Position numbers and translations under genes: made by a program. The notes beneath the pieces are model-generated. The model searched no databases. It was not told the origin of the DNA and saw only the letters and a list, made by a program, of their open reading frames with translations. This document shows, piece by piece, positions 2,153-62,994 of a stretch of 64,000 nucleotides of DNA (positions within the stretch are counted from its first letter, which is position 1; every line of letters begins with the position of its first letter). The DNA is from a candidate division FCPU426 bacterium (GTDB taxonomy: Bacteria > Oederibacteriota > Muellerivitia > Muellerivitales > Muellerivitaceae): assembly GCA_963719085.1 (NCBI GenBank), contig CAVRAL010000001.1:960001-1024000 (forward strand). The letters run 5' to 3'.

Positions 2153-2495
2153 TGGTGGAGGTGGTGGGAATCGAACCCACGTCCTGAAAAACATCCGTAA
2201 AGGGCCCTACGTGCGTAGCTCCGGAATGAATCTCGCTCTCCGCTCGCTCCCGAGCGGCCGGCGGAGAGCCAGTCCCATTGGTTCTCGTCCGTTCGTCGGT
2301 GGAACAAACCCGTCACGGACCAGCCTACTGCTTACGTTCCATCCCCTTAATAGGCATCAAGGGTGAAACGCTAACCGCTTTAAGCGGCCAGAGCTAACTG
2401 GTTATCGGCAGTTAAACCGTTGCCATGTTTGACGAGCGATGGCGCCTCGACACGCTCCCTAAAGTTCAGTTCCCCAGTCGAAACCGGTCACCCCC
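2153..2495 (-). ncRNA. ssrA: tmRNA; tag reading frame ADNQLALAA* at 2380-2409
   Basis: 5' GGGGGTGACCGGTTTCGAC; 3' T-arm GTGGGTTCGATTCCCAC then CACCTCCACCA with G3:U pair; resume context TTTAACT-GCC. Confidence 0.96.
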
Positions 2496-46927: not shown

Positions 46928-48226
46928 TTAGGCCAAGTCCTGGATCATGCCGGCGGCGACCGTGTTATTGGTCAATTCGTCAATCAAAATGAAACTTCCC
47001 GTTCCCCGGTTTCGGGAATAAGGATCGAAACAAATGGGCTTCAAGGTTTGAATTTCCACCTCAGCGATGTCATTGAGATTCAATTGTTCGGCCGTGTTTT
47101 TGTTCATCGTCTTCATATCCCGAACCCAGCGAATGCCGTCAATCATGGCTTTCACCTCGCCGGTCCCCAATTTTAAAAGATACTTTTTCCTCAAAGCCAT
47201 CTGTTCCTTCACCATCCAACAAAGCTTGGCGGAAAAATGTTTACCGGTCTTCGGCTCATTCCCCGGGTAAACCAGCATATCCCCGCGGGAAATGTCGATT
47301 TCAGTTTCAAGCCGCAGGGTCACGCAAGAAGGCGGCCAGGCCTCCTCGAGCTCGCCGTCAAAAGTATCGATCGATTTAATGGTCGAAACCGCTCCCGAAG
47401 GAAGCGCCATGATCTTCTGTCCCTTTTTCGCCACGCCCGAAACCACTTTCCCGGCGAAACCCCGGTAATCCAAATTAGGCCTCAAAACAATTTGCACCGG
47501 GAAACGGAAATCCTCAAGATTGCGGTCTTTGGAAATTTCAACCGTTTCCAAATACTCCAGCAATGACTTCCCCTGGTACCAGGGCATGGCGGCGCTTTTC
47601 ACCGTCACGTTGTCCCCTTTCAAGGCCGACAAAGGAATAAACTCAAGATTCTTCATCGACGGGGGAGCCGGGTTCTCATCCGCCAATTGTTTAAAAAACG
47701 CGGTGTATTCTTTTTTAATCTCCTCAAACTTCGCCTCGCTGAATTCAACCAAATCCATTTTGTTGACCGCCACCACGATATGGGGAATGCCCAAAAGTTT
47801 GGCGATATAGCCATGGCGTTTGGACTGGATCATGACCCCGTTGCGGGCGTCAATCAAGATGATGGCTAAATCCGCGGTCGAGGCCCCCGTCACCATGTTG
47901 CGGGTGTACTGCTCGTGGCCCGGGGTGTCGGCGATGATGAACTTGCGCTTGGCCGTGACGAAATAACGGTAGGCCACGTCAATGGTGATCCCTTGCTCGC
48001 GCTCCGCGGAAAGCCCATCGGTGATCAAGGCGAAATCGATGTCTTCGCCTCCCTTTTTTTCCGTGGTGCGGCGGATCGCCTCCAATTGGTCCTCAAAGAC
48101 TCCCTTGGAATCATAAAGAAGACGTCCGATGAGGGTTGACTTGCCGTCGTCCACGCTGCCCGCAGTGGTAAACCGGAGCAAATCCATCTTTTCGTAATTG
48201 AGGAGGGTTTTGGCTTCGAGGGTCAA
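46928..48226 (-). CDS. cysN: Sulfate adenylyltransferase subunit 1 (GTPase), no CysC domain
   Basis: [39 protein letters not shown] start at 48226 inferred (overlaps the natural cysD stop; AAGGAAGG upstream). Confidence 0.92.
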
Positions 48227-49147
48227 AAGTAACCTTCCTTTTTCTTTTGTTCCATCGAGTCTGTCGGAGCCGTGGTCGATGATCCGGTTTTCCCGTTCGC
48301 TTTTGCGGGTGGTGATCAGATCCTCGATAATCCCCCTAAGGTCCGTCACTTCCTTATCCGACTGCACCGCGCCCGTACAGGACATACAGCCTAAAGACCT
48401 AAAACGCACCCGCATGTCTTTGACTTCATCCCCGGGCAAAATCGGGATGTGGGAAACAAAAGGAATCAGCAGGTTTTTGCGTTGGATAATCTTACGGGTG
48501 TGGGTGAAATAAATCGGGACCACGGGAATATTTTCCATCTCGATATAAAGCCAAATATCCAGTTCGGTCCAATTGGACAAGGGGAATACCCGGATCGACT
48601 CGCTCTCGTTGATCTTGGAGTTGTAAAGGTCCCATAATTCGGGTCTTTGGTTTTTAGGATCCCATTGTCCAAAGGCGTCCCGGAAGGAGTAAACCCGTTC
48701 CTTGGCCCGCGATTTTTCCTCTTCCCGCCGCGCCCCGCCGAAAGCCGCGTCAAAACCATGCTTCCCCAGCCCGTCCAATAATCCTTGGGTTTTTAAAAGT
48801 CCGCAGCATTTTTGAACGCCATATTTAAAGGGGCTGGATCCGCCGGCAATGGCTTCCTCGTTACGTTCCACAAGGAGTTTGGCCCCGATTTCCTTGACCA
48901 GCTTGTCCCGGAACTCGTACATTTCGGGGAATTTATAGCCTGTGTCCACGTGGAGCAGCGGAAAAGGGATCTTGCCGGGGAAAAAGGCCTTTTGGGCCAG
49001 CCGCAGCATGACACTGGAGTCCTTGCCGACCGAATAAAGCATGACCGGGTTTTTAAATTCCGCCACGACTTCACGGATAATGAAGATACTTTCCGCTTCC
49101 AACTGACGAAGATGGGATAGGGTTTGAGATTGGGCGGCCGTTGACAT
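48223..49147 (-). CDS. cysD: Sulfate adenylyltransferase subunit 2; a single extra base near 48260 runs the frame into cysN as sequenced
   Basis: [40 protein letters not shown]; canonical [11 protein letters not shown] lies in the shifted frame. Confidence 0.9.
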
Positions 49148-49369
49148 TTTTTCCTCAAAAGCGATTTGAGCTCATTGTTGGACTTTCAGCTAAAAACGTC
49201 CAGGGGGCGGCCAAAAGCCCAACAAAAATACTATGTTTCGGGGTCAAACTCAATGCCAAAGAAGCCACCAAGACATTTGCCACAGATGTCCCGTGGCTCC
49301 CTATAAGTGTCAAGGATGCCCGGGACGATGCCGCTCCCCCTTAACTTTGATATGGAGGAGCGGCGCGCA

Positions 49370-49506
49370 CACAGATCAATACTGATGAACACAGATGAGG
49401 AAAATCTTTAATTTAAAGGCTCGGACGGCGAAAAACGACTTTTGAGGAAAAACTTTCTTTGCGTCCTTAGAAAATCTTCATCCGTGTTCATCAGTGTGCA
49501 TCTGTG
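49370..49506. repeat. Inverted-repeat element related to the GATGAAC.CAGAT family
   Basis: CACAGATCAATACTGATGAACACAGATGA versus the reverse complement of TCATCCGTGTTCATCAGTGTGCATCTGTG. Confidence 0.7.
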
Positions 49507-49538
49507 GATAAAAAAGGTTTCGGCTTTTAGCTTTGGTT

Positions 49539-50579
49539 TTAAAGCGGAAAAACGTGGAAGGCGGTGATAGCGGCGTAGACTTCCTGGTTTTCCTTGAAGC
49601 CGCTGGCCAGGGCCACGCCCTTGGGCAGTTGGGCCGAGATGATCTTATCCTCACCGATATCGAGTTTGTACTCGATGACGGTCCCCTTGAAACGGGTTTG
49701 GACAATCTTTGCCTTGACCTGCAGGGTCTCAAAGGACTCGGTCACATAAACATCGTTGGGCCTGAAATAGATCCGGATTTTTTGCTTCACTTGAAATCCC
49801 CGGCTGATGGGGAACCGGAAAGGCCCCCAGATGGCCAAACCCGGCTCGGCGATTTCGGTGTCGATAAAATTGGTTTCCCCCACGAATTGGGCGATGAAAT
49901 GGGTCGCGGGCTCATCAAAAATTTGAATCGGTGTTCCGTCCTGCTCGATCTCGCCGTGATTCATAATGAGGATCCGGCTGGCCACTTCCAACGCCTCGTG
50001 CTGGTCATGGGTCACGAAAAGGGTGGTCACCCGGCTTTGCTCATGCAGTTTTAAAAGCCAGTCCCGCAATTCTTCTCTCACCTTGGCGTCCAACGCGCCG
50101 AAGGGTTCATCCAACAAAAGCACCTCGGGCCGGGGCGCCAGAGCCCGTGCCACGGCCACCCTTTGGCGCTGTCCCCCCGACAATTGGGAAGGATAACGCC
50201 TCTCGTATCCGGTCAATTGAATGAGGTTTAAAAGCTCATAAACCCGGTTTTTCACCTCGGCCTCCGGCGTCTTGCGCACCCGAAGACCGAAGGCGATGTT
50301 CTCGAAAATGCTCATGTGTTTAAACAACGCGTAATGCTGGAACACAAAACCCACATTCCGTTCTTTGGCCGAAACGTAAGTGGCTTCCCGTCCCGTCAAA
50401 TGGATCTCACCCGAATCCGGCACCTCAAGCCCGGCGATCATGCGCAGTAAGGTGCTTTTGCCCGAACCCGAAGGGCCCAGCAAGGCGACCAGCGACCCGG
50501 TCTCCAGCTTCAGGCTGATGTCCTTCACCGCCTGAAACTTGTTGAAGGTTTTGCTTAAGTTCCGGACCTCAATACTCAT
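49539..50579 (-). CDS. cysA: Sulfate/thiosulfate ABC transporter ATP-binding protein
   Basis: GPSGSGKST, VFQHYALF, LSGGQRQR, DEPFGALD, TOBE-like tail. Confidence 0.95.
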   Translation of the reverse strand: MSIEVRNLSKTFNKFQAVKDISLKLETGSLVALLGPSGSGKSTLLRMIAGLEVPDSGEIHLTGREATYVSAKERNVGFVFQHYALFKHMSIFENIAFGLRVRKTPEAEVKNRVYELLNLIQLTGYERRYPSQLSGGQRQRVAVARALAPRPEVLLLDEPFGALDAKVREELRDWLLKLHEQSRVTTLFVTHDQHEALEVASRILIMNHGEIEQDGTPIQIFDEPATHFIAQFVGETNFIDTEIAEPGLAIWGPFRFPISRGFQVKQKIRIYFRPNDVYVTESFETLQVKAKIVQTRFKGTVIEYKLDIGEDKIISAQLPKGVALASGFKENQEVYAAITAFHVFPL

Positions 50580-51490
50580 AAGATGCCCTCTTGTGTTATG
50601 GATAAATTGGACAGCTCACGTTCCCGATCGACCCGGGCTTCCACAAAGCTTTTGGCGACCAAGGTCACCAGCGCGAGAAAAGCCAAAAGCGACGCGGCGG
50701 CGAAGGCCGCGGTAAAGTCATACTCGTTATAGAGAATCTCCACGTGCAAGGGCAGGGTATTGGTCAAACCCCGGATATGGCCCGACACCACCGATACGGC
50801 GCCAAACTCGCCCATGGCCCTGGCGTTACAAAGAATGACTCCATAGAGAAGCCCCCATTGAATATTAGGAACCGTGATAAGGCGGAATATTTGCCAACCG
50901 CTGGCCCCCAGCACCATGCCGGCTTCTTCCTCATCCGAGCCTTGTTCTTCCATGAGCGGAATCAATTCCCGGGAAACGAAAGGAAAGGTCACGAAAATCG
51001 TGGCCAGAATGATCCCCAGCGGCGCGAAAATGATCTGAATGTTGTGGTCCTTGAGCCAATGGCCCATCAAACCCTGGAGCCCGAATAACAGCACAAAAAC
51101 CAAACCCGAGATGACCGGGGATACCGTGAAGGGGATGTCCACCAGGGTAATCAGGAGGTTTTTTCCCGGAAAACGAAAGCGGGTAATGGCCCAAGCCGCG
51201 GCCAACCCGAACAAAGTATTTAGAAGCACCGAAAAGAAGGCCGTGATCAGCGTCAAGCGGATGGCCGAAATGGCGGCCGGGTCGGTAACCGCTTGAAAGT
51301 AGTAGCCAATTCCCTTTTCAAAGGCCGTGCAAAAAACCACCCCCAGCGGCAAAAGCAAAAAAAGTCCCAGAAATAAAAGGGAGATCCCAATCAAAATAAA
51401 CCGGACCCACTTGGGTTCGGTCAGGGCCGCCGCCGGATCGGCGACTTGCCCTTCCCTTCTTAAACTAACCAAAAGCACTTCCCGTTCCAT
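50576..51490 (-). CDS. cysW: Sulfate ABC transporter permease CysW
   Basis: VSPVISGL, FVTFPFVSRELIP, LCNARAMGEFGAVSVVSGHIRG. Confidence 0.95.
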   Translation of the reverse strand: MEREVLLVSLRREGQVADPAAALTEPKWVRFILIGISLLFLGLFLLLPLGVVFCTAFEKGIGYYFQAVTDPAAISAIRLTLITAFFSVLLNTLFGLAAAWAITRFRFPGKNLLITLVDIPFTVSPVISGLVFVLLFGLQGLMGHWLKDHNIQIIFAPLGIILATIFVTFPFVSRELIPLMEEQGSDEEEAGMVLGASGWQIFRLITVPNIQWGLLYGVILCNARAMGEFGAVSVVSGHIRGLTNTLPLHVEILYNEYDFTAAFAAASLLAFLALVTLVAKSFVEARVDRERELSNLSITQEGIL

Positions 51491-51497
51491 AAATCCC

Positions 51498-52340
51498 TCA
51501 GTGAATAACGCGGTGCTGGCCGATTTTCGATTGCAGCCAGTTAATCAGTAAAAGCAAACCAAAAGAAATCGTCAGCATCACCACGGCGATCGAAGTGGCC
51601 CCGGCGTAGTCATATTGTTCCAGCTTGGTCATGATCAGGAGCGGCGCGATCTCGGTTTTCATGGGCATATTGCCTGAGATGAAAACCACCGAGCCGTATT
51701 CCCCCACCGCCCGGGCGAAAGCCAAGGAGAAACCCGTGATCCAAGCCGGGGCCAAGGAAGGCAAAATCACCCGGCTCAAGGTTTGCCAGCGGGTCGCGCC
51801 CAGACTGACCGCGGCCTTTTCAATTTCCGGATCCAAAGATTCCAATACGGGTTGAAGCGTGCGTACCACAAAAGGCAGTCCAATAAAGGTCAGCGCCACT
51901 AAAATGCCCAAGGGCGTGTAATCCACCTGGATCCCGAGAGGAACCAGAAAGCGGCCGATCCAACCGTTCGGCGCGTAAACCGCGGTTAAGGCGATGCCCG
52001 CGACCGCCGTGGGAAGCGCGAAGGGAAGGTCCACCATGGCATCCACGATCCGCTTGCCCGGAAAGGAATAGCGCACCAATACCCAAGCCACCACCACCCC
52101 GAAAACGGAGTTGATCAAGGCCCCCAAAAAAGACACACCAAAGCTTAATTTATAAGAAGCCAATACCCGCGGGCTGGATACCTCTTGGACAAATTGGGCC
52201 CAGGTAATGGTGGTCGTCTTTAATATCAGCGCCCCGATCGGAATTAAAACAATGAGGCTTAAATAAGTGAGGGTGTAACCCATCGACAGCCCAAAGCCGG
52301 GCAAAACGCCGGTGGATTTGAAAATCGGTTTGGAGTTCAC
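51498..52340 (-). CDS. cysT: Sulfate ABC transporter permease CysT
   Basis: VLPGFGLS, VDLPFALPTAVAGI, GEYGSVVFISGNMP, KLEQYDY. Confidence 0.95.
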   Translation of the reverse strand: MNSKPIFKSTGVLPGFGLSMGYTLTYLSLIVLIPIGALILKTTTITWAQFVQEVSSPRVLASYKLSFGVSFLGALINSVFGVVVAWVLVRYSFPGKRIVDAMVDLPFALPTAVAGIALTAVYAPNGWIGRFLVPLGIQVDYTPLGILVALTFIGLPFVVRTLQPVLESLDPEIEKAAVSLGATRWQTLSRVILPSLAPAWITGFSLAFARAVGEYGSVVFISGNMPMKTEIAPLLIMTKLEQYDYAGATSIAVVMLTISFGLLLLINWLQSKIGQHRVIH

Positions 52341-52371
52341 GGATTAAAATTCCTCTTAATACTGCGGGGTT

Positions 52372-52653
52372 CTAAATCTCGCCGCTTTTGTCTTTCCACT
52401 CTTTGAGCAATTGCCGGATCGCCTCAACGGCCTCGGAGGCGTCCTCTCCCTCGGCCGAAAACTCCAGCACACTACCATAAATCGCCCCAATCGTTAATAA
52501 GTCGATCAAGTTCTTGGCGTTCACCGCGTAGCCGCTACCGTTCGAAACCAGTATTTTGCTTTTAAAACGGCTAACTACCTTCACGAGTTGCGCCCCGGCC
52601 CGCAAATGAATGCCCAGTTGATGGAGTACGGGTATCTTTAATTTCTTTTTCAT
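52372..52653 (-). CDS. HPr-family phosphocarrier protein (alternative in-frame start at 52794 adds 47 aa)
   Basis: GIHLRAGAQLVK...F.SKI (His15 region), VNAKNLIDLL (Ser46 position is Asn), AEGEDA.EA. Confidence 0.8.
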   Translation of the reverse strand: MKKKLKIPVLHQLGIHLRAGAQLVKVVSRFKSKILVSNGSGYAVNAKNLIDLLTIGAIYGSVLEFSAEGEDASEAVEAIRQLLKEWKDKSGEI

Positions 52654-52834
52654 GGCCTCATCCCCATTTAAGCCGCTCAAGACGACTAGTTTCGCCTTCT
52701 TGTCCCAATGTCCGCCTTTTTTCAACTTGTCCGGGCGCCAGCCCTGTTTCGGGATCTCAAAAAGAGGGTTGATGGTCGAATATTTAATCAACATCGTTTC
52801 CCCCTTCCTCAAATCCAGACTTTGGTTTTTCCAC

Positions 52835-53015
52835 AAAATAAAAACGCGGGAAAGCGTCCCTGTCCACTTCCCCGCGCCAGGCCTTTAGCCCTTACAGCCA
52901 CCAGGCATAAGCAGCTGTCTCATGCCTTGAACAAAAACTCGTCTCTCAATCGACGGCGGGACAGGCCCTCCGTCAAACACTCAGGACTAACGCTCAATCC
53001 GATCTGGCATGAGAC
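52835..53015 (-). promoter_or_regulatory. Unidentified structured leader RNA ending in an intrinsic terminator
   Basis: 10-bp stem GTCTCATGCC/GGCATGAGAC enclosing three hairpins; 12-bp terminator stem (52845-52876) followed by TTTTTATTTT. Confidence 0.55.
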
Positions 53016-53041
53016 GCTTTGACTCCTATTACACTCCAGTC

Positions 53042-54067
53042 CTACTTAGGCTGATAAATCTGGTCAAACACCCCGCCATCACCGAAGAAAGCCGGTTGGG
53101 CTTTGCTCCAGCCGCCGAACACCTTGTTGATGGTGAAAAGGTTGATCTTCGGGAAAGTTTTGGCGTATTCCGCCGCCACTTTCTTGTCCCTCGGCCGGTA
53201 GTAATTCCGAGCGACCACTTCCTGGCCTTCGGGCGAGTACAAATAGGTCAAGTAGGCTTGCGCCAAGTCGGTTGTGCCGTGCTTCTGGGTATTTTGATCC
53301 ACCCAGGCCACCGGCGGCTCGGCCAAAATGCTGACCGAAGGGACCACGATCTCAAACTTGTCCTTGCCCAATTCATTGACCGCGAGAAACGCGTCGTTTT
53401 CCCAGGCGATTTCCACGTCCCCCACGCCCCGTTCCACGAAAGTCGTGGTCGATCCGCGCGCGCCCGAATCCAAGACCGGCACATTCTTGTAAAGCTTGGT
53501 CACGAATTCCCGCGCCTTGTCCTCGCTGCCGTATTTTTTCAAGGCGTAACCCCAGGCCGCCAAAAAGTTCCAGCGGGCCCCCCCGGAAGTCTTCGGGTTC
53601 GGCGTAATCACCGAAACATCCGGCCGGACCAAGTCATCCCAGTCGCGGATGTTTTTGGGGTTGCCCTTGCGCACCAACAACACGATGGTGGACGTATAAG
53701 GCGTGCTGTGCTGGGGCAAACGGCTTTGCCAGCTGTCCGGCAAAAGCTGGGCCTTGCTGGCGATGGCGTCGATATCCCCCGCCAGGGCCAATGTCACCAC
53801 GTCGGCTTCCAAACCGTCGATGACCGCCCGGGCTTGCTTGCCCGATCCTCCGTTGGACAAGTCAATCGTCACATCCTGTCCGGTCTTCTTTTTCCAATAA
53901 TCGGCGAAGACCTTGTCGTAATCAGCGTAAAGCTCACGCGTCGGGTCATACGACACATTCAGCAAATGCGCCGCGCCCGCCGGGGCGCCATCCGCCCGGA
54001 CAACCGAGACGGAAGTCGCGGTCAGCGCGAAACTTAAGATTCCCGCTATCCATTTTTTCTTATTCAT
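53042..54067 (-). CDS. sbp: Sulfate-binding periplasmic protein
   Basis: [43 protein letters not shown]. Confidence 0.95.
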
Positions 54068-54141
54068 TTTTCTCTCCTTGAGAATGTTCGGCCAATTAGA
54101 TCCTTCCGGAAGCCCTCGGGGCTCCCGGAAGAAATCCCGAA

Positions 54142-55455
54142 TTAAAGGTTGATTTCAGCCTGTCCGATAACCGCCTGGTATTGCTTGAAATGGTCCTCGA
54201 CATTGAGCGAGAGCTTAAAGCGGTCCTTGGCTTGGTACCAATCAATGCCGGCGGTCGCCACATCGTTGTTCCAATGGGCGGGTCCGTTATAGACGTTGGC
54301 GATATAAGACTCGCCACGCACCCCGAAACGCACGTCGCCGATCCGGTACTGCGCCGTCAAGTAATAACCTTGGGGCCAAGATTCCTTCGTGGTGCTCGGA
54401 TTGTAGTAGTTGCCCGGTTCCAGCTTGCCCTGGATATATTCTCCTTGCAGTTTGAATCCGTTGTAAACCCAGCGAAGCTCAAACCCCGTGTTGCTGCGTT
54501 CCCCGGCTGGGGCGTAAACCGTGCTGGTTTTGCCCGCGGCGGAAGTGACCGAAAACAAAGCGTCCTGTTCCCAGCCGCCGTAGAAAGACAATCCGGTCCA
54601 GAGGCCGGTCGCGCCCAATCCGGTCCAATCCACGCCGCCCCGGAAAGCCGCGTCCTTGTTGTCATTGCTATCGGCGATATTTTGCCCCGCGCCCGAAACC
54701 AAGGCCAAGGCGTAATCCACCGCCACCGGTCCAACCGGAATCTTGGAAGCCGAAGCCTGCAAAGCCAAATCGCGCCGGGCTTCGAAGGCCGTCGTCACGA
54801 GGGCCGTGTTGATGAAGTCCAATTCACCCGAGGGTGTACGGCCTTCCAAGGCTTGGGCGTATTTATACTGTCCAAACTGAAGGTCCGCGAAGGGGATATA
54901 GGACGCCTTCACGTAGTAATCCTTCAATTGTTCCCCGTTGGAAACACCCGGCTTCGAGACCGCCGCCGCCGTCACCGGCGTGGCGAACGGACTCGTAAAG
55001 GAAGGACTCACCGCCGCAGTGGCGGCCGCCGGGTCATACTTCACTTGGTACGAAAGCTGTCCCGGGATGAGATCCCCGAAAAGGCCGATTTCCACCCGCT
55101 TGACCGAAAATTGGTCGTAAATGTCGTTGAATCCGGCGGCGGCCGGCGCCACCGGCGCCTTAATCCCGGGAGCCACCGTGCCGAACTGGCTGGCATTGGT
55201 GTATTGACCCTGGACCAAAAGGCTCACCTTGGCGTACTTGGCCAAGTCCGAAATTTTCTTGTTGATGAGCTCCAGGTCCGAAACCGAAATGGCCGACGGA
55301 TCATCGGCGTCCGCCGCGTCCTGAGAATCGGTCACATCGGACGTGGTGGCGGCGGTCGTATCCGTGGCCGGCGCCTTATCCTTGGCCCAAACCTTGGCGT
55401 TGCCAAAAGACAGGGACGTCAGCAAAACCAAAAAAGCAGCTAAAAACCGTTTCAT
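54142..55455 (-). CDS. Outer-membrane porin, OprO/OprP-like
   Basis: Signal peptide, beta-rich; F.VKRV.I.L.G, LKDYYV, GQYK, RDL, DSNDNKD..FR. Confidence 0.7.
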
Positions 55456-55521: not shown

Positions 55522-55757
55522 AAACAAAAAATCCCGGGTCCCGCTGGCTTCAGCGGACTCGGGATTAGGAAAAATTCCATAATCACTAAGACCGCTTTAG
55601 CGCCCAGTTCGCCTTTGCAGGCACGGTCGGGGCAAGTTGGTGGCGGATACGGACAAAGTCCGCAACCGCCCCGGGTGTGGTCCCATTCTTTCCGGGTCCA
55701 CGGGTATTCCGTATCTTTTTGGGATTCGGAATAACGCCGGTTAAAGCCTCACCGTTT
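55522..55757 (-). promoter_or_regulatory. SAM-II-like riboswitch candidate plus terminator (third of three, about 100-nt insertion)
   Basis: ACGGTGAGG-CTTTAA-[insert]-CCAACTTGC-CCCGACCGT-hairpin-GGGCGCTAAAGCGG; terminator 55522-55566. Confidence 0.72.
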
Positions 55758-55790
55758 CATCGATTGTTCAGAGGGGATTTTTGTTGGATG

Positions 55791-55988
55791 AAAACAAAAA
55801 TCCCGAACCACTTGGCTTAGAGCGGTTCGGGATTCGGGAAATTCTCGAATTCTTCACCGCTTTAGCCCCCAGTTTTTTTCGACCCCAATGACGGGCCAAA
55901 AACGGTCGGGGCAAGTTGGTCAATCCTCTTTCAAGGACCGTTGGAAAAGCCTTGTTCAGACTTTTCGCCAATTAAAGCCACACCGCTT
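55791..55988 (-). promoter_or_regulatory. SAM-II-like riboswitch candidate plus terminator (second of three)
   Basis: AAGCGGTGTGG-CTTTAA-[two hairpins]-CCAACTTGC-CCCGACCGTTT-hairpin-GGGGGCTAAAGCGG; terminator 55791-55834. Confidence 0.72.
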
Positions 55989-56012
55989 GAAGCGAATGAC
56001 AAATCCAGGGTT

Positions 56013-56145
56013 AAAACAAAAAACCCGGGCCGCTTTAAAAGCGGTCCGGGTTTAGGGATTTCTCTCTAAATCGTCATTTCCGCTTTAGCTCGCTGTTCGG
56101 CTCTTTCGAGCCACGCCGGAGCAAGTTGAAACTTAAAGCCCGCGC
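56013..56145 (-). promoter_or_regulatory. SAM-II-like riboswitch candidate plus terminator (first of three, compact)
   Basis: GCGCGGG-CTTTAAG-TTTCAACTTGC-TCCGGCGT-GAAA hairpin-GCGAGCTAAAGCGG; terminator 56013-56053. Confidence 0.75.
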
Positions 56146-56156
56146 TTGATGTTGGA

Positions 56157-56185
56157 AATATAGCTCGCCACCGATTTCCTGTCAA
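56157..56185 (-). promoter_or_regulatory. Sigma70-type promoter for the triple-riboswitch/sulfate operon
   Basis: TTGACA-N17-TATATT with an AT-rich upstream tract. Confidence 0.75.
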
Positions 56186-56401: not shown

Positions 56402-58324
56402 TCACCGAGCCGACGGAACCCTTCCCCCCACCAACCGACAAAGAGCGGACTCCAAGGCGTCCAAATCCTCGAAGGTGTTATAAAAGGCCAACGAAGCCCG
56501 AACGGTTCCCTCCAGCCCAAAACGACGCAGGATTGGCTGGGCGCAATGGTGCCCTGACCTGACCGCGATCCCTTCCTTATCCAACGCCTGTCCAATCTCC
56601 TCGTTCTTAAACCCATCGATCACAAACGATAGCACCCCGGCCTTTTCCGCGGCGTTGCCAATAATCCGCAATCCCGGGATGGCCTTTAGCTTTTGAGTCC
56701 CATAAACCAGCAGTTCATGCTCATGACGGGCCACATTCTCCAGCCCGACCCGATCCAGATAATCGAGCGCCGCGCCCAAACCCACCGCGTCGGCGATATT
56801 GCCGGTCCCGGCCTCAAATCGTCCGGGAGCAGGCTGGTAAAGGGTCTTCTCGAAAGTCACATCGGCGATCATGTTTCCCCCTCCCTGCCAGGGCTGGAAG
56901 GAATTTAAAAGAGCTTCCTTGCCGTGCAAAACCCCGATTCCCGTCGGCCCAAAAACCTTGTGACCCGAAAAAACATAAAAATCACTATCCAGCTCCGCCA
57001 CATTCACCCGGAGATGGGAAACCGCCTGGGCCCCATCCACCAATATTTTCGCACCATGGCGGTGGGCGATTTCAATCAACTGCTTCACCGGCGTCAACGT
57101 TCCCAAGGCGTTGGAAACTTGCGTCACCGAAACCAACTTCGTCTTGTCCGTTAAAAGTTTCTCGTACTCGTCGAGTAGGACCTGTCCCGAATCATCCACA
57201 GGAATGACCCGCAGTTTCGCGCCCTTGGCGGAGGCGAGATGCTGCCATGGAACGATATTGGCGTGGTGTTCGAGCCAGCTGACGATAATCTCGTCGCCCG
57301 CCCCGATGTTCTGCTCTCCCCAGGCCTTGGCCACCAGATTGATGGCCTCGGTGGCGCCCCGAACGAAAACAATTTCTTTCGCCGAAGAAGCCCCCAAAAA
57401 TCGCCGCGCTTTTTCTCGGGCCCCCTCGTAAGCGTCCGTAGCCCGGGCGGCCAGGGTATGGGCGGCGCGGTGAACGTTGGAATTCTCGTTGGCGTAAAAA
57501 TAATCCAACCGGTCAATGACGGTTTGGGGTTTTTGCGTGGTGGCCGCGTTGTCCAACCAAACCAAGGGCTTCCCGTTGATCTTCTGCCGCAGGATGGGAA
57601 AATCTTTTTTATACCAGGCCGCGTCAAAGACCGGACGCGGACCGCCCGAACTCAGGGGAGCCACCACTGGCGTAAAAGCATAAGGATCCGCCAAGACGGC
57701 CCCCGGTTCATTTCCGCCCTCCAAAAGAACCGATCCCGGCACGCCGCTCGTTCCCGCCGAAAAAATTTCAGAGGATGGCTGGGTCGACGCGGGGACGCTG
57801 TTTATCTGATCGGACACTTTGGATGGCGCCTCAGCCGGGGACTTCGCTTTTGGATTTTCCTCAAGTTTCAAATCCTCGGGAAAAACCGCCGGAAATGAAA
57901 AAGCCCTGCCATCCGTTCCGATCGGCAGCGCGGAACCGGAAAAAGGGTTCACCGTTTCCGAATGGGAACTGGGGGCGGAAAAAAAAGCCGACAACCCTAA
58001 ACCCGCCGGAATCCCGGCCAAAACCCCCGAGTCCAAGGGTTCGGTCAACAGTCCGGCCGGCGATGAAATCGGCGTGAAGGGCTGGAACGAGGCCAAACTG
58101 CCGGTGGGTCCTCCCGGAACCGGTGAGGGCGCCGCGATGGCCGGTGAAGGGCTTGAAACCACCGAGGGCAACGGCGGCTGCCCCGACAAAACAGAGCCCG
58201 CGGACGGCGTCGCCGGATGTCCCGGAACGGCCCTGAAAAACTCGTTGGCCAACTCGGTCAACAAGGCCGGATCCGGAGCCAAGGTCCCCCAAGAGGATTC
58301 AGGATTGGGGTTACTTGTAGTCAT
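56402..58324 (-). CDS. Family 2A encapsulin cargo cysteine desulfurase (SufS-like) with disordered N-terminal extension
   Basis: About 230 aa Pro/Ser/Gly-rich N-terminus with LTELANEFF; WLDNAATTQKP, EHHANIVPW, FSGHK, RSGHHCAQP. Confidence 0.93.
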   Translation of the reverse strand: MTTSNPNPESSWGTLAPDPALLTELANEFFRAVPGHPATPSAGSVLSGQPPLPSVVSSPSPAIAAPSPVPGGPTGSLASFQPFTPISSPAGLLTEPLDSGVLAGIPAGLGLSAFFSAPSSHSETVNPFSGSALPIGTDGRAFSFPAVFPEDLKLEENPKAKSPAEAPSKVSDQINSVPASTQPSSEIFSAGTSGVPGSVLLEGGNEPGAVLADPYAFTPVVAPLSSGGPRPVFDAAWYKKDFPILRQKINGKPLVWLDNAATTQKPQTVIDRLDYFYANENSNVHRAAHTLAARATDAYEGAREKARRFLGASSAKEIVFVRGATEAINLVAKAWGEQNIGAGDEIIVSWLEHHANIVPWQHLASAKGAKLRVIPVDDSGQVLLDEYEKLLTDKTKLVSVTQVSNALGTLTPVKQLIEIAHRHGAKILVDGAQAVSHLRVNVAELDSDFYVFSGHKVFGPTGIGVLHGKEALLNSFQPWQGGGNMIADVTFEKTLYQPAPGRFEAGTGNIADAVGLGAALDYLDRVGLENVARHEHELLVYGTQKLKAIPGLRIIGNAAEKAGVLSFVIDGFKNEEIGQALDKEGIAVRSGHHCAQPILRRFGLEGTVRASLAFYNTFEDLDALESALCRLVGGRVPSAR

Positions 58325-59234
58325 AGTATTGCGCCACATCGACGTCCTCGAGCACCGCCACCGCGTCATCGGTCAAAACAGCCAAGGAGCAGTAGAGGGA
58401 AATCAAATAAGACGCGATCGCTTTGCTGTCGATGCCCATGAACCGCACGGACAAACTGGGGCTGACTTCCCCCGGCAGTCCGGGCTGAAAAAGACCGATG
58501 ACCCCCTGTTTTTTCTCCCCGGTTCGGATGAGGAGAATATTCGTCTTGTTCTTTTCGTCGATCTTGACCTTATCGCTCGACACGATCGGGATTCCGCGCC
58601 AAGTCAAAAAGGGCGATCCAAACAAAGTCGTCGTCGGAGGCGGAACACCCCGGCGGGTGCATTCCCGCCCAAAGGCCGCCACGGCTTTGGGGTGGGCCAA
58701 AAAGAAAGAAGGCTCTTTCCAGACCTTCGTGATCAATTCGTCTAAATCGTCAGGCGTTGGGCGGCCCTGGCGGGTCTTGATCTTTTGCGAATCCAAGGCC
58801 GAATGGATCAGGCCGTATTCCTTGTTGTTGATCAACTCGCCTTCCTGGCGTTCCTTAACCCGTTCGATCAAAAGCCGCAATTGCTCCTGTATCTGGTCGA
58901 TCGGCTTGCTGTAAAGGTCGGAAACGCGGGTCTGCACATGCAGGACCGAGGTCACCGCGTTCAACCATAATTCTTTCGGGAACTCGTCGTAATTGACGAA
59001 GGTCTGGGGCAAATCGGCGTCTCCCCGCGGGCTGCATTCCACATCCGGTCCGTTGCTTTTATCTTTTACTTTATTCAGCCGGAAAATCCCCGATTCCACC
59101 GGCACCCATTGAAGAAATGGCACCAGCCACCGCGGCGTGATCCCCTCCCATTGGGCGTGTGTCTTCGTGACATTCGCCAACTGCGTGGCCGCGTTTTCTC
59201 CCAGCGTTCTGCGCACTTCTATTGATTCCGCCAT
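58311..59234 (-). CDS. Family 2A encapsulin shell protein (SrpI-like)
   Basis: AATQLANVTKT, ITPRWL...WVPVESG, LPQTFV.Y, RVSDLYS.P.DQI.EQLRL, PTPDDLDEL, FGRECTRRGVPP. Confidence 0.93.
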   Translation of the reverse strand: MAESIEVRRTLGENAATQLANVTKTHAQWEGITPRWLVPFLQWVPVESGIFRLNKVKDKSNGPDVECSPRGDADLPQTFVNYDEFPKELWLNAVTSVLHVQTRVSDLYSKPIDQIQEQLRLLIERVKERQEGELINNKEYGLIHSALDSQKIKTRQGRPTPDDLDELITKVWKEPSFFLAHPKAVAAFGRECTRRGVPPPTTTLFGSPFLTWRGIPIVSSDKVKIDEKNKTNILLIRTGEKKQGVIGLFQPGLPGEVSPSLSVRFMGIDSKAIASYLISLYCSLAVLTDDAVAVLEDVDVAQYYDYK

Positions 59235-59290
59235 GACCGCCTCCCTGAATGAAATAGTTCGTCCACTACCGGCTCAACGTTTCATAAGAC

Positions 59291-59551
59291 TCAAAAACCG
59301 CTCCGACCGGCGCTTGGAAGATGGGTCGTGGTTTTAGCCCTGTTGACGGACCAATCCAATTCCGACTTCCCGGCCTTCCTGAAGCCATTCCTGAAATAGG
59401 CCCGCCAAACAATCCCCAGGCTTCCCAAAAACAGAATGGGACCGCTTTTAAAGCTCGAGGCCAAAAACCAAAGGGTCAGTCGCTTGGAAGCGACCAAGTC
59501 CCGCTCAATTTCCCGCCTCCACAAAATCAATTGCTTCGTTTCTGAATTCAT
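59291..59551 (-). CDS. Possible small protein (86 aa) with one hydrophobic stretch
   Basis: GGGAGG RBS then ATG directly after the riboswitch terminator; first ORF of the encapsulin transcript. Confidence 0.4.
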   Translation of the reverse strand: MNSETKQLILWRREIERDLVASKRLTLWFLASSFKSGPILFLGSLGIVWRAYFRNGFRKAGKSELDWSVNRAKTTTHLPSAGRSGF

Positions 59552-59572: not shown

Positions 59573-59708
59573 AAAAAAAAATCCCAAACCGCCTGATACT
59601 CGCGGTTTGGGATTAGGGGAAAAACCCGATAATCTTCTTTCCGCTTTAGCGCCCTGTTGACCCCTCGCGGGGCACGGCCGGGGCAATTAGGTCAACAAAG
59701 CCTCGCCG
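59573..59708 (-). promoter_or_regulatory. SAM-II-like riboswitch candidate plus terminator (second of two)
   Basis: CGGCGAGG-CTTTGTT-GACCTAATTGC-CCCGGCCG-GCGA hairpin-GGGCGCTAAAGCGG; terminator 59573-59614. Confidence 0.7.
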
Positions 59709-59767: not shown

Positions 59768-59898
59768 AAACAAAAAACCCGGGCCGCTTTAAAAGCGGTC
59801 CGGGTTTAGGGATTTCTCTCTAACACGATCTTCGCCGCTTTAGCTCGCTGTTCGACCCGAAGGTCACGCCGGAGCAAGTTGGAACTTAAAGCCCGCGT
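59768..59898 (-). promoter_or_regulatory. SAM-II-like riboswitch candidate plus terminator (first of two, compact)
   Basis: ACGCGGG-CTTTAAG-TTCCAACTTGC-TCCGGCGT-UUCG hairpin-GCGAGCTAAAGCGG; terminator 59772-59807. Confidence 0.75.
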
Positions 59899-59911: not shown

Positions 59912-59939
59912 ATCCTACCACTCCCTTTCGGCATGTCAA
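59912..59939 (-). promoter_or_regulatory. Sigma70-type promoter for the encapsulin operon
   Basis: TTGACA-N16-TAGGAT with a TG extension and an AT-rich upstream tract. Confidence 0.65.
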
Positions 59940-60121: not shown

Positions 60122-61522
60122 TTAAAACAGCCAAAACCTTTTGTGACTGGAAGCCTTCAGCTTGTTCGAGTCCAATTCTTCCACCGGATTTTCCGAATGG
60201 GGCGTCCCGGCGGGAACCCAGTCATAAGGAACAGGCTGGGCCCGATAAACCCAGTTCACAATGATCCCCTGCCCGCTTTGGTCCCAACCATCATGGGCTT
60301 GGTTAACGTAGGGGTTGACATATTCCCAGACGATCTCCCCAGTCGGAGTCACTTGGAAAAACCGTCCATCCCGTCCCTCGTCGATCAGCGTATTACCATT
60401 GGGAAGCCTGCGGGCGCTGCTGATGAAATGGCTCTGGAAAGACCAAATGGGCCGACCGGAGTTCTCGCCCGTGTACTGCCAAACGATCTGCTTGGTCACC
60501 GGATTAATTTCCAAAACCCGGGATCCGCCAATCAAAGAAACCGGCGGCCATCCCGCGCTGCCCTGGTTGTCGAACACCAACAGGTCACCCGCGCCCGGCA
60601 AGCCTTCGGGAATGATATGGGCGTCATGTTGGCCGGAGATCTGGTCCACGGGCCGCGGCACTTTGGATCCCTTAACCGGCGGATAATCCGGTCCTTGGCG
60701 CCAAACGACCTTGCCTGTGTGCCGATCGATGATCACGATGAAATTAGCGTTGCGGGAATCAAGAAGGATATTATCCGGATTGAAGCGCTTGTCTCCCGCG
60801 TCAAACCAATGGTTCGGACCCACTACGTTGAACTTATTAATGGTCAAGAAGCCGCTGCCTTTTTGCGGCGCGTTGTCCCCTTGGTGAATTTGTTTTTTCA
60901 GGTAGGCGATCCCCGCCGGTGAAATGCCAAACTCGCTTAAGTGGTCTCCCGCCACCCATTTCCAGACGATTTTACCGTCCGGCGTCACTTCATAAATGGC
61001 TTGGTCGGCGATGTCTTGGTCGCCCAATTCCTTGATTTTGTGGACCACGGTGACATCCAGCAGCGTATTGCCGTTGGGCAGTCGGTGCCAGTCATGGTTC
61101 TGGCGGGCCGCCCCGCCCGGCGCTTGTTCGCCCCACTCCCAAACGGTTTTTCCGTCCCAGTCCAATTCCCCAACGGTTTTATTGTGGAAAATCCCGCCCC
61201 AAGTATCTTTGCCGTCCGAAGAAAGTTGGACCAGCACATGACCCAGCTTTCCGCCGGTGATTTTGGGATCCAGCAATTCACTGGGAAAACCCCAATGGTT
61301 CCATCGGTGGACCTCATTTCCATCCAAGTCAATCAGATGGGTATTTCCATCCGGGGCCCCGAAGAGTACATAGCTGTTATAGGCTTTGGCCGGATCGTAG
61401 ATCGTGGTTCCCGTCAGGTAAACCCGGGGTGCCGCCGACAATTCCCCCGTTCCGATGGCGGTCAAAAGAACGGCCGCCGGCAATATCAGATTCTTTTTTG
61501 AAAAAAATTGACACAGTCTCAT
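60122..61522 (-). CDS. Exported arylsulfotransferase (ASST)-like beta-propeller protein, distal paralog
   Basis: Signal peptide; QNHDW.RLPNGNTL, GQHDAH, LVFDN, SARRLPNGNTLI.EG, WEY.NP. Confidence 0.8.
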   Translation of the reverse strand: MRLCQFFSKKNLILPAAVLLTAIGTGELSAAPRVYLTGTTIYDPAKAYNSYVLFGAPDGNTHLIDLDGNEVHRWNHWGFPSELLDPKITGGKLGHVLVQLSSDGKDTWGGIFHNKTVGELDWDGKTVWEWGEQAPGGAARQNHDWHRLPNGNTLLDVTVVHKIKELGDQDIADQAIYEVTPDGKIVWKWVAGDHLSEFGISPAGIAYLKKQIHQGDNAPQKGSGFLTINKFNVVGPNHWFDAGDKRFNPDNILLDSRNANFIVIIDRHTGKVVWRQGPDYPPVKGSKVPRPVDQISGQHDAHIIPEGLPGAGDLLVFDNQGSAGWPPVSLIGGSRVLEINPVTKQIVWQYTGENSGRPIWSFQSHFISSARRLPNGNTLIDEGRDGRFFQVTPTGEIVWEYVNPYVNQAHDGWDQSGQGIIVNWVYRAQPVPYDWVPAGTPHSENPVEELDSNKLKASSHKRFWLF

Positions 61523-61545: not shown

Positions 61546-62994
61546 TTATTTCTGTGCGGTCGGAGGTGGATTAAAAATCTCAGGCTCCGCCACCGGCTTT
61601 TCCGAATGGGGCGTTCCCGTCGGCACCCATTCGTACGGCACCGGGATAGCCCGGTAAACGTAATTACTGATCACCTGAGCGTTTCCCGTGGGCGCCCAAA
61701 CCTTGTCGCCGGGTTGGTTCACGTAGGGATTAACGTATTCCCAGACGATCTTGCCGGTTGGGGTGATCTGGAAGAATCTTCCGTCACTTCCCTCATCGAT
61801 AAAAGTATTGCCGTTGGGAAGACGCCTGGCATCGCTGACGAAATGACTGCGGAAGGTCCAAGCCGTGCGACCCGAATCCTCACCCGTGTATTGCCAAATG
61901 ATCTGTTTGGTCACCGGGTTGATTTCCAACACCCGGGAGCCGCCCAACAAGGAAACCGGGGGATAGCCCGCGCTTCCCTGGTTGTCAAATACCAAAAGAT
62001 TGCCGGCGCCCGGCAAGCCCTCGGGAATAATCTGGGCGTCATGCTGGCCCGAGATTTGATCCACCGGACGGGGCAATTGGCTCTGCGGATTGTCCACGAA
62101 TTGGCTGGTCACCTTCACTTTGACGCGGGGAAAATCCGGACCCAGGCGCCAAACGACCTTCCCCGTTTTTTTGTCGATGATGATGATGAAGTTGGCGTTG
62201 CGGGAATCCGTGATGATGTTGTCCGGATTAAACCGCTGGTCACCTTCGTCAAACCAATGGTTGGGCCCTATGGGTTTCATGTTGTTGAAATGAAGATACT
62301 CGACATTCTTGCCCCGCCCCACGACCTCACGCAGATATTGCAGGTCGCTCGGGGTAAAACCGAACTCGGCCAAATGGTCCCCTGCGGTCCAAGTCCAGGC
62401 GATTTTCCCATCGGGCGTGACTTCATAAAAGACTTGGTCATGCACCGGCGCCTTTACCAATCCCTTTACCGGATGGGTGACATTCGAGAGGATCAGGGTA
62501 TTGCCGTTGGGCAGGCGCGCCCAATCATGGTGCTGGTCCGCGGCCCCGCCGGGGGCATTCTGGCCCCATTCCCAAACGGTTTTGCCGTCCCAATCCAGCT
62601 CACCGAATATCTGGTTGTTGAAAAAGCCCCGTTCCCGTCCCGGCGCGTTCTTGAGTTGTAGCAGAACATGCCCCAACTGTCCGCCCGCCAGCTTCGGGTC
62701 GAGCAACCCCGCCGGGAAACCCACATGAGGCCAGGAATGGACTTCATTCCCGTCCAAATCGATCAAGTGGGTTTTTCCGTCCGGCGCGGAAAAAATCACG
62801 TAGCTATTGTAGGCCTGGGTCGGATCGTAAATCGTGGTGCCCGTCTCAAAAATCCGGGGATTGGCCGAAAGAGTCGAAATCCCCGCCAACCCAATTCCCG
62901 CCGCCAAGGACAAAATCTTTAACGAACCCCAAAAAATTCCTGGCGGGGACGCGATGGGTCCCCGCCATTTCGATAGTTTGTCGGATTTATTCAT
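61546..62994 (-). CDS. Exported arylsulfotransferase (ASST)-like protein, middle paralog
   Basis: QHHDW, YLHFN, GQHDA, LVFDN, RRLPNGNTFI.EG. Confidence 0.82.
   Translation of the reverse strand: MNKSDKLSKWRGPIASPPGIFWGSLKILSLAAGIGLAGISTLSANPRIFETGTTIYDPTQAYNSYVIFSAPDGKTHLIDLDGNEVHSWPHVGFPAGLLDPKLAGGQLGHVLLQLKNAPGRERGFFNNQIFGELDWDGKTVWEWGQNAPGGAADQHHDWARLPNGNTLILSNVTHPVKGLVKAPVHDQVFYEVTPDGKIAWTWTAGDHLAEFGFTPSDLQYLREVVGRGKNVEYLHFNNMKPIGPNHWFDEGDQRFNPDNIITDSRNANFIIIIDKKTGKVVWRLGPDFPRVKVKVTSQFVDNPQSQLPRPVDQISGQHDAQIIPEGLPGAGNLLVFDNQGSAGYPPVSLLGGSRVLEINPVTKQIIWQYTGEDSGRTAWTFRSHFVSDARRLPNGNTFIDEGSDGRFFQITPTGKIVWEYVNPYVNQPGDKVWAPTGNAQVISNYVYRAIPVPYEWVPTGTPHSEKPVAEPEIFNPPPTAQK

Follow-up and report, generated by a model that had tools for sequence, protein, structure and literature searches.

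Tandem arrays of a candidate SAM-II/SAM-V-type riboswitch variant upstream of sulfur-assimilation genes in uncultivated bacteria

The DNA considered here, the window, is a stretch of 64,000 nucleotides (contig CAVRAL010000001.1, positions 960,001 to 1,024,000) from a candidate division FCPU426 bacterium, in which two leaders on the minus strand, A and B, carry repeated copies of an RNA motif similar to two riboswitch classes for S-adenosylmethionine (SAM), SAM-II and SAM-V. Leader A, with three copies, precedes an operon for sulfate uptake and activation, and leader B, with two, an operon that encodes an encapsulin shell protein. The features of leader A are listed below, where bit scores and E-values refer to R1, a covariance model described further on.

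56157..56185, minus strand: promoter, TTGACA, 17-nt spacer, TATATT, 11 of 12 consensus positions matched
56145-56013, minus strand: unit A1, whole (aptamer and terminator)
56080..56145, minus strand: A1 aptamer, R1 67.7 bits, E 4.1e-17
56013..56051, minus strand: A1 intrinsic terminator, ACCCGGACCGC-UUUUAAA-GCGGCCCGGGU and U-tract, hairpin -22.7 kcal/mol
55986-55788, minus strand: unit A2, whole (aptamer and terminator)
55857..55986, minus strand: A2 aptamer, R1 36.7 bits, E 1.6e-8, only the portion 3' of the insert being aligned
55788..55835, minus strand: A2 intrinsic terminator, 15-pair stem and U-tract, hairpin -24.3 kcal/mol
55755-55522, minus strand: unit A3, whole (aptamer and terminator)
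55592..55755, minus strand: A3 aptamer, R1 40.3 bits, E 1.6e-9
55522..55565, minus strand: A3 intrinsic terminator and U-tract, hairpin -23.9 kcal/mol

Leader A is a tandem array in which a single promoter-like site, the only strong one on the minus strand from 56185 down to the porin gene, is followed by three aptamers, each with its own terminator; the first start codon after the A3 terminator is that of the porin, at 55455. The three units share the same order of blocks, namely the 5' arm of helix P1, GGCUUUAA, an optional insert, CAACUUGC, the 3' arm of P1, a variable hairpin, GCUAAAGCGG, a small hairpin, and a GC-rich stem with a U-tract. In A1 the P1 arms are GCGC/GCGU, the third strand GGGCUUUAA is followed by CAACUUGCUCC, and the 3' part of the aptamer consists of the hairpin GGCUC-GAAA-GAGCC, GAACA, and GCGAGCUAAAGCGG. 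A2 has P1 GCGGU/ACCGU, the pseudoknot helix GCCCC/GGGGC, and, between UUUAA and CCAACUUGC, a two-hairpin insert of about 60 nt; in A3 the corresponding arms are ACGGU/ACCGU and GCCCC/GGGCGC, and an insert of about 100 nt occupies the same site. In A1, CCGCUUU in the 5' arm of the terminator and AAAGCGG, the tail of the aptamer, are complementary, and the duplex between them has a predicted energy of -10.0 kcal/mol versus a shuffled mean of -5.3, reached by 3 of 100 shuffles; the equivalent duplexes are of -12.2 kcal/mol in A2 (reached by 1/100) and -12.5 kcal/mol in A3 (2/100). Leader B is organized in the same manner:

59912..59939, minus strand: promoter, TTGACA, 16-nt spacer, TAGGAT, with TG ahead of the -10 element, 10 of 12 consensus positions
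59898-59768, minus strand: unit B1, whole (aptamer and terminator)
59835..59898, minus strand: B1 aptamer, of the same subtype as A1, R1 69.4 bits, E 1.3e-17
59768..59805, minus strand: B1 intrinsic terminator, tail/arm duplex -10.1 kcal/mol, reached by 4/100 shuffles
59708-59573, minus strand: unit B2, whole (aptamer and terminator)
59641..59708, minus strand: B2 aptamer, P1 CGGC/GCCG, R1 62.0 bits, E 1.6e-15
59573..59614, minus strand: B2 intrinsic terminator, tail/arm duplex -7.9 kcal/mol, reached by 5/100 shuffles

B2 is distinguished by the variant letters UUUGU and CUAAUUGC. The search of the window with R1 returned five copies (E 1.3e-17, 4.1e-17, 1.6e-15, 1.6e-9, and 1.6e-8), the next matches, at E 0.085 and 0.33, being taken as noise, with nothing else below 0.08; in addition, the 10-mer GCTAAAGCGG occurs exactly five times in the 64 kb, always on the minus strand and once per unit. 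Owing to these E-values and to the 10-mer count, the five-copy pattern is regarded as real and well beyond chance. The original prediction, drawn from the letters of the window, had already described the TTGACA-N17-TATATT promoter and three units of identical order, each closed by an intrinsic terminator, and all of these are present on the minus strand; the P1 pairs that it gave (ACGGU/ACCGU in A3, GCGGU/ACCGU in A2, CGGC/GCCG in B2) had been read correctly, as had the pseudoknot extension, GCUC/GAGC in A1 and B1 versus GCCCC/GGGGC in A2. The P1 of A1 and B1, which it did not mention, is ACGC or GCGC paired with GCGU. Its claim of a CCGC in the 5' arm of every terminator also holds for the five window units, each of which has a hairpin and a U-tract. 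A stricter terminator scan flagged one of the five (A2), and the tail/arm duplexes range from -7.9 to -12.5 kcal/mol, with at most 5/100 mononucleotide shuffles of the arm reaching the observed energy in each unit.

Relatives were sought by scanning genome contigs with the pattern CAACTTGCYCC-N(18-48)-GCTAAAGCG, which yielded at least 80 stretches corresponding to 79 loci (numbered with the prefix L). Many pattern matches lie by chance inside genes, for example in L009, L012, L016, L020, L028, and L030-L032, and most of the loci carry the full motif, including the parts outside the pattern. An alignment fitted to no structure (alignment A1, MAFFT) was made of 64 pattern-found copies and three window units, and R1 was built from it with only P1 annotated. 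Applied to the window and the 79 loci, R1 gave 127 matches at E<=0.01, 99 of them unique by contig coordinates; after exclusion from the count of L045, L048, and L074 (E 0.0007-0.003), which are devoid of the upstream blocks, 96 units in 64 arrays were retained from the window and 44 contigs, 91 of the units being outside the window. The numbers of copies and arrays are lower bounds and are biased toward copies that fit the search pattern; about 20 copies were found by R1 alone, and in these UUGC and UAAAG are kept. The metagenome-assembled genomes (MAGs) concerned are labelled as Elusimicrobia/Elusimicrobiota, Candidatus Firestonebacteria, Acidobacteria, Gemmatimonadota, Caldisericales, Persephonella, Candidatus Obscuribacterium, and "uncultured bacterium/proteobacterium", with at least seven phylum-level labels overall. 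No locus identical to the window occurs among the 79; the Sbp protein of the window shares about 80% identity with those encoded on CAWIIP010000002.1, JAJPJW010000049.1, and CAZGKT010000010.1.

The consensus of the motif can be written ACGGYGAGGCUUUAA-nnnCC-AACUUGCCCCG-RCCG-[hairpin]-GAACAGGGnGCUAAAGCGG, and it folds as an H-type pseudoknot, with support from covariation. From 5' to 3' the aptamer comprises a 4-bp P1, the third strand GAGGCUUUAA, a turn where up to about 100 nt can be inserted, a P2a of 2-3 bp between the linker CC and the tail GG, the descending strand AACUUGCCCCG, a P3 hairpin of variable sequence with GAACA after it, and the ascending strand CAGGGnGCUAAAGCGG; the third strand GAGGCUUUAA would lie in the major groove of P2, forming a triplex. 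P1, the pseudoknot helix, and the short P2a covary across 98 distinct copies. In particular, P1 (CGGY/RCCG) occurs in nine combinations of arms, which are CGGC/GCCG, ACGC/GCGU, CGGU/ACCG, UGGC/GCCA, AGGC/GCCU, GCGC/GCGU, CGGU/GCCG, AGGU/ACCU, and AGGU/GCCU, and it is fully paired in 76 of 86 parsed copies with three registers allowed, the corresponding figure for permuted 3' arms being 29.3 on average and 40 at most. The pair types counted in a second alignment (alignment A2) are CG 53/AU 30/UA 4, GC 66/CG 11, and CG 54/UA 16 for P1, GC 76/AU 3/UA 2/GU 3/UG 1 for the closing pair of P2, and CG 78/UG 9/GC 3/UA 2 for P2a. In the pseudoknot helix GCCCCG pairs with C-a-GGG-n-GC, and the changes between subtypes are compensated (GCUC/GAGC, GCCUC/GAGGC). 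P2a is mostly CC..GG, with U.G in nine copies, UU..AA in L053, and GG..CC in the Gemmatimonadota loci L011, L029, and L052; its columns 44-201 and 45-200 are paired in 92/95 and 94/95 copies, and a third pair, 43-202, in only 41/94.

Over the whole of alignment A2, 89.0% of cells are paired versus 81.9% after shuffling, a value reached by none of 500 shuffles, with a covariation of 0.190 versus 0.086, and slid controls give 30-58% of paired cells; these figures are to be read with the caveats that alignment A2 is fitted to P1, that the copies are mutually related, and that several columns are fixed by the search pattern. In alignment A1 the values are 85.8% versus 79.7%, again reached by 0/500 shuffles, and 0.179 versus 0.094. 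Covariation in homologs, whose lack had been named in advance as grounds for abandoning the riboswitch proposal, is present in P1, P2, and P2a in both alignments. In almost every copy the 3' arm of P1 is succeeded by a variable hairpin at the P3 position, and after it comes GAACA, two A's of which are at least 90% conserved.

Other pairings were also considered. A register of lower P2 devoid of the bulge, in which position 3 pairs with the variable N, gives UA in 19 copies, CG in 17, and no pair in 57; it suits only some subtypes and was rejected as a general solution, although the bulged and unbulged registers may coexist. An extension of P1, GG of GAGG with CC of GCCCC, was seen by eye in a few copies (L075, L021, and Gemmatimonadota). 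The functional fold could also be a nested three-way junction, in which GCUUUA/UAAAGC forms an outer helix enclosing the insert hairpin and GCCCC/GGGGC; this is the ViennaRNA minimum-free-energy fold of unit A2, and 91.8% of its cells are able to pair. However, it displays no compensatory changes, 174 of 500 shuffles are equally good, and 27/92 copies have another base, mostly A, instead of the C of GCUUUA, and 11 differ at its first U, while the partner is unchanged, which fits a third strand better than a Watson-Crick partner; since the pairing of P1 in the pseudoknot is strongly covarying and the nested fold is not, the latter was rejected as the functional fold, for which it is very improbable, and may exist as a ligand-free alternative to the pseudoknot.

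The core of the pseudoknot can be compared with known aptamers. SAM-II is reportedly described by Corbino 2005 and its structure by Gilbert 2008, and SAM-V by Poiata 2009. The Rfam consensus of SAM_alpha is CCGUGGuGAUUUGacCGGCCGGCUUGCAgCCACGUUAAAcAAgUCGCUAAAgAGGCC, with the core ..GAUUUG..CUUGCA..CGCUAAAgAGGCC, and its counterpart in the motif is GAGGCUUUAA..CUUGCCCCG..GCUAAAGCGG; the spacing between P2a and CUUGC/GCUAAAG is 2 nt by 1 nt in both. The earlier assertion that the UUU, together with UUGC pairing with GC-U-AA-A, represents the SAM-II core agrees with this consensus, in which the GA..UUU third strand, CUUGC, and GCUAAA are all matched. As for SAM-V, the available part of PMC6061858 describes, in the crystal structure 6FZ0, a 4-bp P1, a third strand G5-G11 containing U8-U10, a three-nucleotide turn, a 2-bp P2a made by nucleotides 14-15 with the 3' tail, the stretch A18, U19, U20, G21, and a P3 hairpin; A40-A42 make A-minor contacts, U47 pairs with the adenine of SAM, the triple U20:A48.U9 is directed toward the sulfonium, U19:A49.U10 forms a second triple, and A50 holds the amino-acid end. 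Each of the elements given there has a counterpart in the motif, in the same order.

The expression platform is generally an intrinsic terminator. A hairpin with a U-tract follows within 130 nt in 81 of 93 copies, with CCGC in the 5' arm of 70 of the 81, and the 12-nt aptamer tail pairs with the 5' half of the terminator with a mean energy of -10.0 kcal/mol versus -5.9 for shuffled arms; in 40/81 copies, including all five window units, at most 5/100 shuffles reach the observed duplex energy. Due to the complementarity of the tail and the arm, the tail and the 3' arm of the terminator compete for CCGC(UUU). Beside these, the last units before porin genes in five loci (L039:3880-3999, L042:3890-3999, L070:1500-1611, L001:3312-3420, L036:5175-5290) are among the 12/93 copies that lack a U-tract; downstream of them stands a more complex conserved structure, GGUCUUCGAGA...CCCGRCCCGC...GCGGGGUC...CGAAGACCCCGAGCGG...CCGCGAUA, which may be a different expression platform.

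Each unit is probably a complete riboswitch with the SAM-II/SAM-V fold, working as a transcriptional OFF switch with SAM as its presumed ligand; the terminators and the tail/terminator-arm complementarity fit such a switch. By homology with SAM-II and SAM-V, SAM would insert beside the bulged U of GC-U-AAA, with the sulfonium toward two U-A.U triples and the amino-acid end touching the third A. Binding would lock the tail AAAGCGG into P2b and P2a and leave the CCGC arm free, so that the terminator would form and transcription stop; in the absence of SAM, the tail would pair with the CCGC arm as an antiterminator and the polymerase would continue. With three independent stops in series, the read-through probabilities would multiply, and the sulfate-uptake/activation operon would respond to SAM more steeply and with less leak; the encapsulin/cysteine desulfurase operon would be controlled likewise by its two-unit array. 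The copies, the fold with its covariation, the terminators, the complementarity, and the regulon are observed in the sequences, and SAM as the ligand, the triplex, and the dose-response behaviour are inferred. The original prediction had set termination control apart from characterized SAM-II switches, said to act mostly by hiding the ribosome-binding site; this is true only of the metX example, the only one characterized structurally, which is translational, SAM-II switches being mostly transcriptional according to the available part of PMC6061858. Termination control is consequently no departure from SAM-II.

Several observations weigh against this interpretation. With Rfam 15, no SAM-family match was obtained on any copy in the whole window at the gathering score, on leader A and unit A1 alone at E<=10, on the motif copies of 20 loci at the gathering score, or on the five copies of L025 at E<=10. 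Conversely, the canonical SAM-II of L079 scores only 2.8 bits with R1. Several copies (GGCGUUAA; L015, L047, and L062) have G in place of the first third-strand U, a residue whose SAM-V counterpart, U8, contacts U47. Moreover, 64 of the 96 copies were found by an exact pattern that fixes CAACTTGCYCC and GCTAAAGCG, so that the invariance of these letters is partly built in, and only the copies found by R1 alone bear on it. Finally, 12/93 copies have no recognizable terminator within 130 nt. The scan of the 20 loci contained its own positive control, since the canonical SAM-II of L079 and L064 were detected with 43.6 and 42.1 bits (the gathering cut-off of RF00521 is 36 bits), and the weak Rfam matches obtained (ncr982, microRNAs, snoRNAs, and the Thr leader) concerned only terminators and were taken as chance.

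The repeats could be no metabolite sensors at all but leader elements to which a protein or small RNA binds, or else simple attenuators in series, as the missing Rfam match might suggest. Such a reading is extremely improbable, in that the motif is kept across MAGs of at least seven phylum-level labels with invariant letters that are those of a known aptamer core, and a covarying pseudoknot combined with competition between tail and terminator is typical of riboswitches. Coming back to a riboswitch of the SAM-II/SAM-V kind, the Infernal comparison with the Rfam models SAM-II, SAM-II long loops, and SAM-V detected none of the copies scanned, and because of this the motif is a relative, and not a member, of these families as currently modelled. 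The designation "SAM-II-like" is upheld, given the core letters, the fold, the regulon, and the fit of the terminators to an OFF switch. The most fitting description is a new variant, or subclass, within the SAM-II/SAM-V kind that Rfam 15 misses; by analogy, the motif would work like SAM-II and SAM-V.

With SAM-II (RF00521) it shares the H-type pseudoknot, the U-rich third strand GAUUU, CUUGC, the bulged-U GCUAAA, and the same spacing to a GC-rich P2a and, presumably, the transcriptional OFF control of met genes that the accessible part of PMC6061858 attributes to most members. In contrast to SAM-II, the motif has a P1 of 4 bp instead of 6, a lower P2 of about 6 bp with two bulges, a P2a of only 2-3 bp, possible large inserts at the turn, a different set of phyla, and a P3 hairpin in L3, where SAM-II, as described in that part of PMC6061858, has none. 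The likeness to SAM-V (RF01826) includes the 4-bp P1, the three-U third strand, the turn, the 2-bp P2a, the UUG/UAAA core, and the P3 hairpin followed by conserved A's, the elements corresponding one for one in order; SAM-V, however, acts on translation, its P2a containing the Shine-Dalgarno sequence, and belongs to marine Pelagibacter-type bacteria, whereas the motif uses intrinsic terminators, has C at the position of A18 (as SAM-II has), extends both the lower P2, which contains two bulges, and the third strand, in which GAGGC stands ahead of UUU, and optionally carries inserts of 60-100 nt at the turn. Nor does the motif belong to the SAM-II long loops (RF01726). These are likewise SAM-II relatives with extra loop sequence, but they are AT-rich and come from Bacteroidetes and marine samples according to the part of Weinberg 2010 (PMC2864571) available; the only RF01726 match seen, of 17.4 bits, concerned the canonical L079 SAM-II, not the motif. 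In the open-access literature searched, no SAM-II/SAM-V variant of this kind and no report of an Elusimicrobia SAM-II riboswitch were found; SAM-II goes unmentioned in the available main text of Weinberg 2017 (PMC5737381), whose supplement may list variants.

The genes controlled were examined through crude open reading frame (ORF) calls and a Pfam scan of the first one to three ORFs downstream of the 64 arrays. Porin_O_P, Sbp, or CysT follow 13 arrays, a 1-Cys peroxiredoxin seven, and a MetY-type Cys_Met_Meta_PP enzyme five, accompanied by MetX and MetW in L008 and L035, by MetX in L013, by CysK and MetX in L062, and by none of these partners in L023. DsrE or TusA and DUF3034 are each found behind three arrays, ExbB-ExbD behind two (with TonB in one), and CysK with a hexapeptide transferase, an SsuA-like binding protein after a porin, and the encapsulin operon behind one each; the other arrays gave no Pfam match or reach the contig end. 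The regulated set is a sulfur-assimilation and methionine regulon, and this composition fits SAM as a signal of sulfur sufficiency, a role for which the S-box regulon of Firmicutes is a precedent.

The presence of a peroxiredoxin in a SAM/sulfur regulon is unexpected. Two-unit arrays precede the 1-Cys peroxiredoxin gene in L019, L021, L036, L039, L042, L070, and L071; in all five of the loci read further (L021, L036, L039, L042, L070) a single unit lies beyond this gene, in four of them before porin or porin-like and Sbp-type genes and in L021 before CysK and a CysE-like hexapeptide transferase, and the contigs of L019 and L071 stop at the peroxiredoxin gene. A dense sulfur island is found on CAZUXW010000001.1 (L021, L022, L025, L026, L069), where 10 motif copies in six arrays within about 18 kb precede porin-Sbp, DsrE-ExbBD, CysK-CysE-like, and peroxiredoxin genes.

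Two Caldisericales MAGs have the motif in one leader with canonical SAM switches. The L079 leader (3815-4210, plus strand) contains, in this order, a SAM-I (79.1 bits), the motif at 3969-4050, and a SAM-II at 4110-4185 (43.6 bits), and the L064 leader (3820-4080, minus strand) contains the motif at 3999-4078 followed by a SAM-II at 3832-3907 (42.1 bits); every SAM-type element in them has its own terminator. Three structurally different SAM-type switches in one leader, as in L079, are not among the arrangements given in the available part of PMC9481103. This company counts in favour of a SAM-type switch, but it can also be turned against SAM as the ligand, as a motif flanked by canonical SAM switches can be argued to sense something else. 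The same fold could bind S-adenosylhomocysteine (SAH), methionine, a cysteine-pathway intermediate, or adenosine phosphosulfate or its 3'-phosphorylated form (APS/PAPS), and would then form a two-input gate beside the canonical switches of L079 and L064; the regulon lies mainly on the sulfate-uptake/cysteine side (13/64 arrays with porin/Sbp/CysT versus five with MetY), the first U of the third strand is variable, and tandems of different classes often sense different ligands, as the accessible part of PMC9481103 reports. A ligand other than SAM is nevertheless distinctly improbable, because the counterparts of the SAM contacts U9, U10, U19, U20, U47, and A48-A50, as identified in the part of PMC6061858 available, are kept, also in copies found by R1 only, metY-metX-metW is a classic target of SAM switches, and tandems of two SAM classes for the same ligand are documented in PMC9481103, in its available part, with 149 SAM-II/SAM-V and 7+2 SAM-II with SAM-I/IV cases.

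The 64 arrays consist of 36 single, 24 double, and four triple ones, and the triples (the window, L025, L001, and L017) are each upstream of an Sbp-containing sulfate-uptake operon. Every one of the 60 units in multi-unit arrays has its nearest relative on a different contig, in 45/60 cases at the same ordinal position, and the best identity is on average 66% within an array versus 85% across contigs; window units 1 and 3 have their closest relatives in the units of the same number in the L025 triple. From these relationships it follows that the units of an array are no recent duplicates and that the architecture is old and maintained, and the pattern of sequence relationships argues that the arrays are under selection. 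Tandem riboswitches for thiamine pyrophosphate are reportedly treated by Welz and Breaker 2007. The available part of PMC9481103 lists 44 doublets of SAM-II, 164 of SAM-I along with one SAM-I triple, and 149 SAM-II/SAM-V tandems, calling arrays for the same ligand pseudo-cooperative, and a natural triple array for cyclic di-GMP is described in the accessible part of PMC4759541. The arrays of the motif resemble the pseudo-cooperative ones in having a terminator for each aptamer and units in series in one leader; they differ from the SAM-II tandems reported in that part of PMC9481103, all doublets, in being triple in 4/64 cases, with units whose position is conserved across genomes. The view that three switches in tandem are unusual is fair in the light of these SAM-II doublets and the single SAM-I triple, but the arrangement recurs in four of the 64 arrays collected here.

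Every ordinal position is conserved between genomes and distinct from the neighbouring ones: unit 1 has ACGC/GCGU, GCUC/GAGC, and no insert, and in later units either 60-100 nt are inserted or core letters vary. The units might accordingly be non-redundant, differentiated sensors, with diverse affinities or kinetics, or with another sulfur ligand, whether for certain positions only or for the class as a whole, that together would make up a multi-threshold or multi-input controller of the sulfur-starvation regulon. This is rather unlikely, and, if true, the array would be more than a simple repeat of one SAM switch.

Behind leader A, the Pfam assignments bear out the sulfate uptake and activation operon proposed from the window sequence:

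46928..55455, minus strand: operon A, regulated
54142-55455, minus strand: Porin_O_P-like porin
53042-54067, minus strand: sulfate-binding protein, Sbp
52372-52836, minus strand: HPr-domain protein
51498-52340, minus strand: CysT-like permease
50576-51490, minus strand: CysW-like permease
49539-50579, minus strand: CysA-like ATPase
46928-49147, minus strand: CysD-CysN fusion of 739 aa (PAPS_reduct and GTP_EFTU domains), at the end of the operon

An HPr-domain protein of the phosphotransferase system (PTS) is found in or beside riboswitch-controlled sulfate-uptake operons in three genomes (window 52372-52836, L015:5492-5770, and L025:975-1340). The operon behind leader B comprises the following, with Pfam assignments where families are named:

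56402..59551, minus strand: operon B, regulated
59291-59551, minus strand: ORF of 86 aa with no family match
58311-59234, minus strand: SrpI-like family 2A encapsulin shell protein, PF19307, 3.9e-102
56402-58369, minus strand: class-V aminotransferase of cysteine desulfurase type, 655 aa, PF00266, 9.3e-147

The cysteine desulfurase-type enzyme has a long N-terminal extension and is probably the cargo of the encapsulin, and the nanocompartment would share its presumed SAM control with sulfate uptake. The SrpI encapsulin is said to be connected with sulfur starvation (Nichols 2021). A search of the open-access literature for riboswitches tied to an encapsulin and a cysteine desulfurase returned no such report, only one unrelated review. 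Directly upstream of leader B lie two adjacent arylsulfotransferase-like (ASST) paralogues (60122-61522 and 61546-62994, minus strand), which extend the sulfur theme of the neighbourhood. The sole Rfam family found at the gathering score in the window is a tmRNA gene (RF00023, 175.2 bits, 2153-2495, minus strand).

The motif is widespread in uncultivated lineages, typically in position-conserved tandem arrays. Its recognition would add to the SAM-II/SAM-V superfamily a distinct subclass, wholly missed by current Rfam models, in poorly studied lineages, and would make sequence by itself enough for annotating the sulfur regulon of these organisms. Through it, a family 2A encapsulin with its probable cysteine desulfurase cargo, together with a 1-Cys peroxiredoxin, comes under the presumed SAM control of sulfate uptake, and the recurrent double and triple arrays, conserved in position, offer a natural test case for the sharper and less leaky control expected of riboswitches in series.

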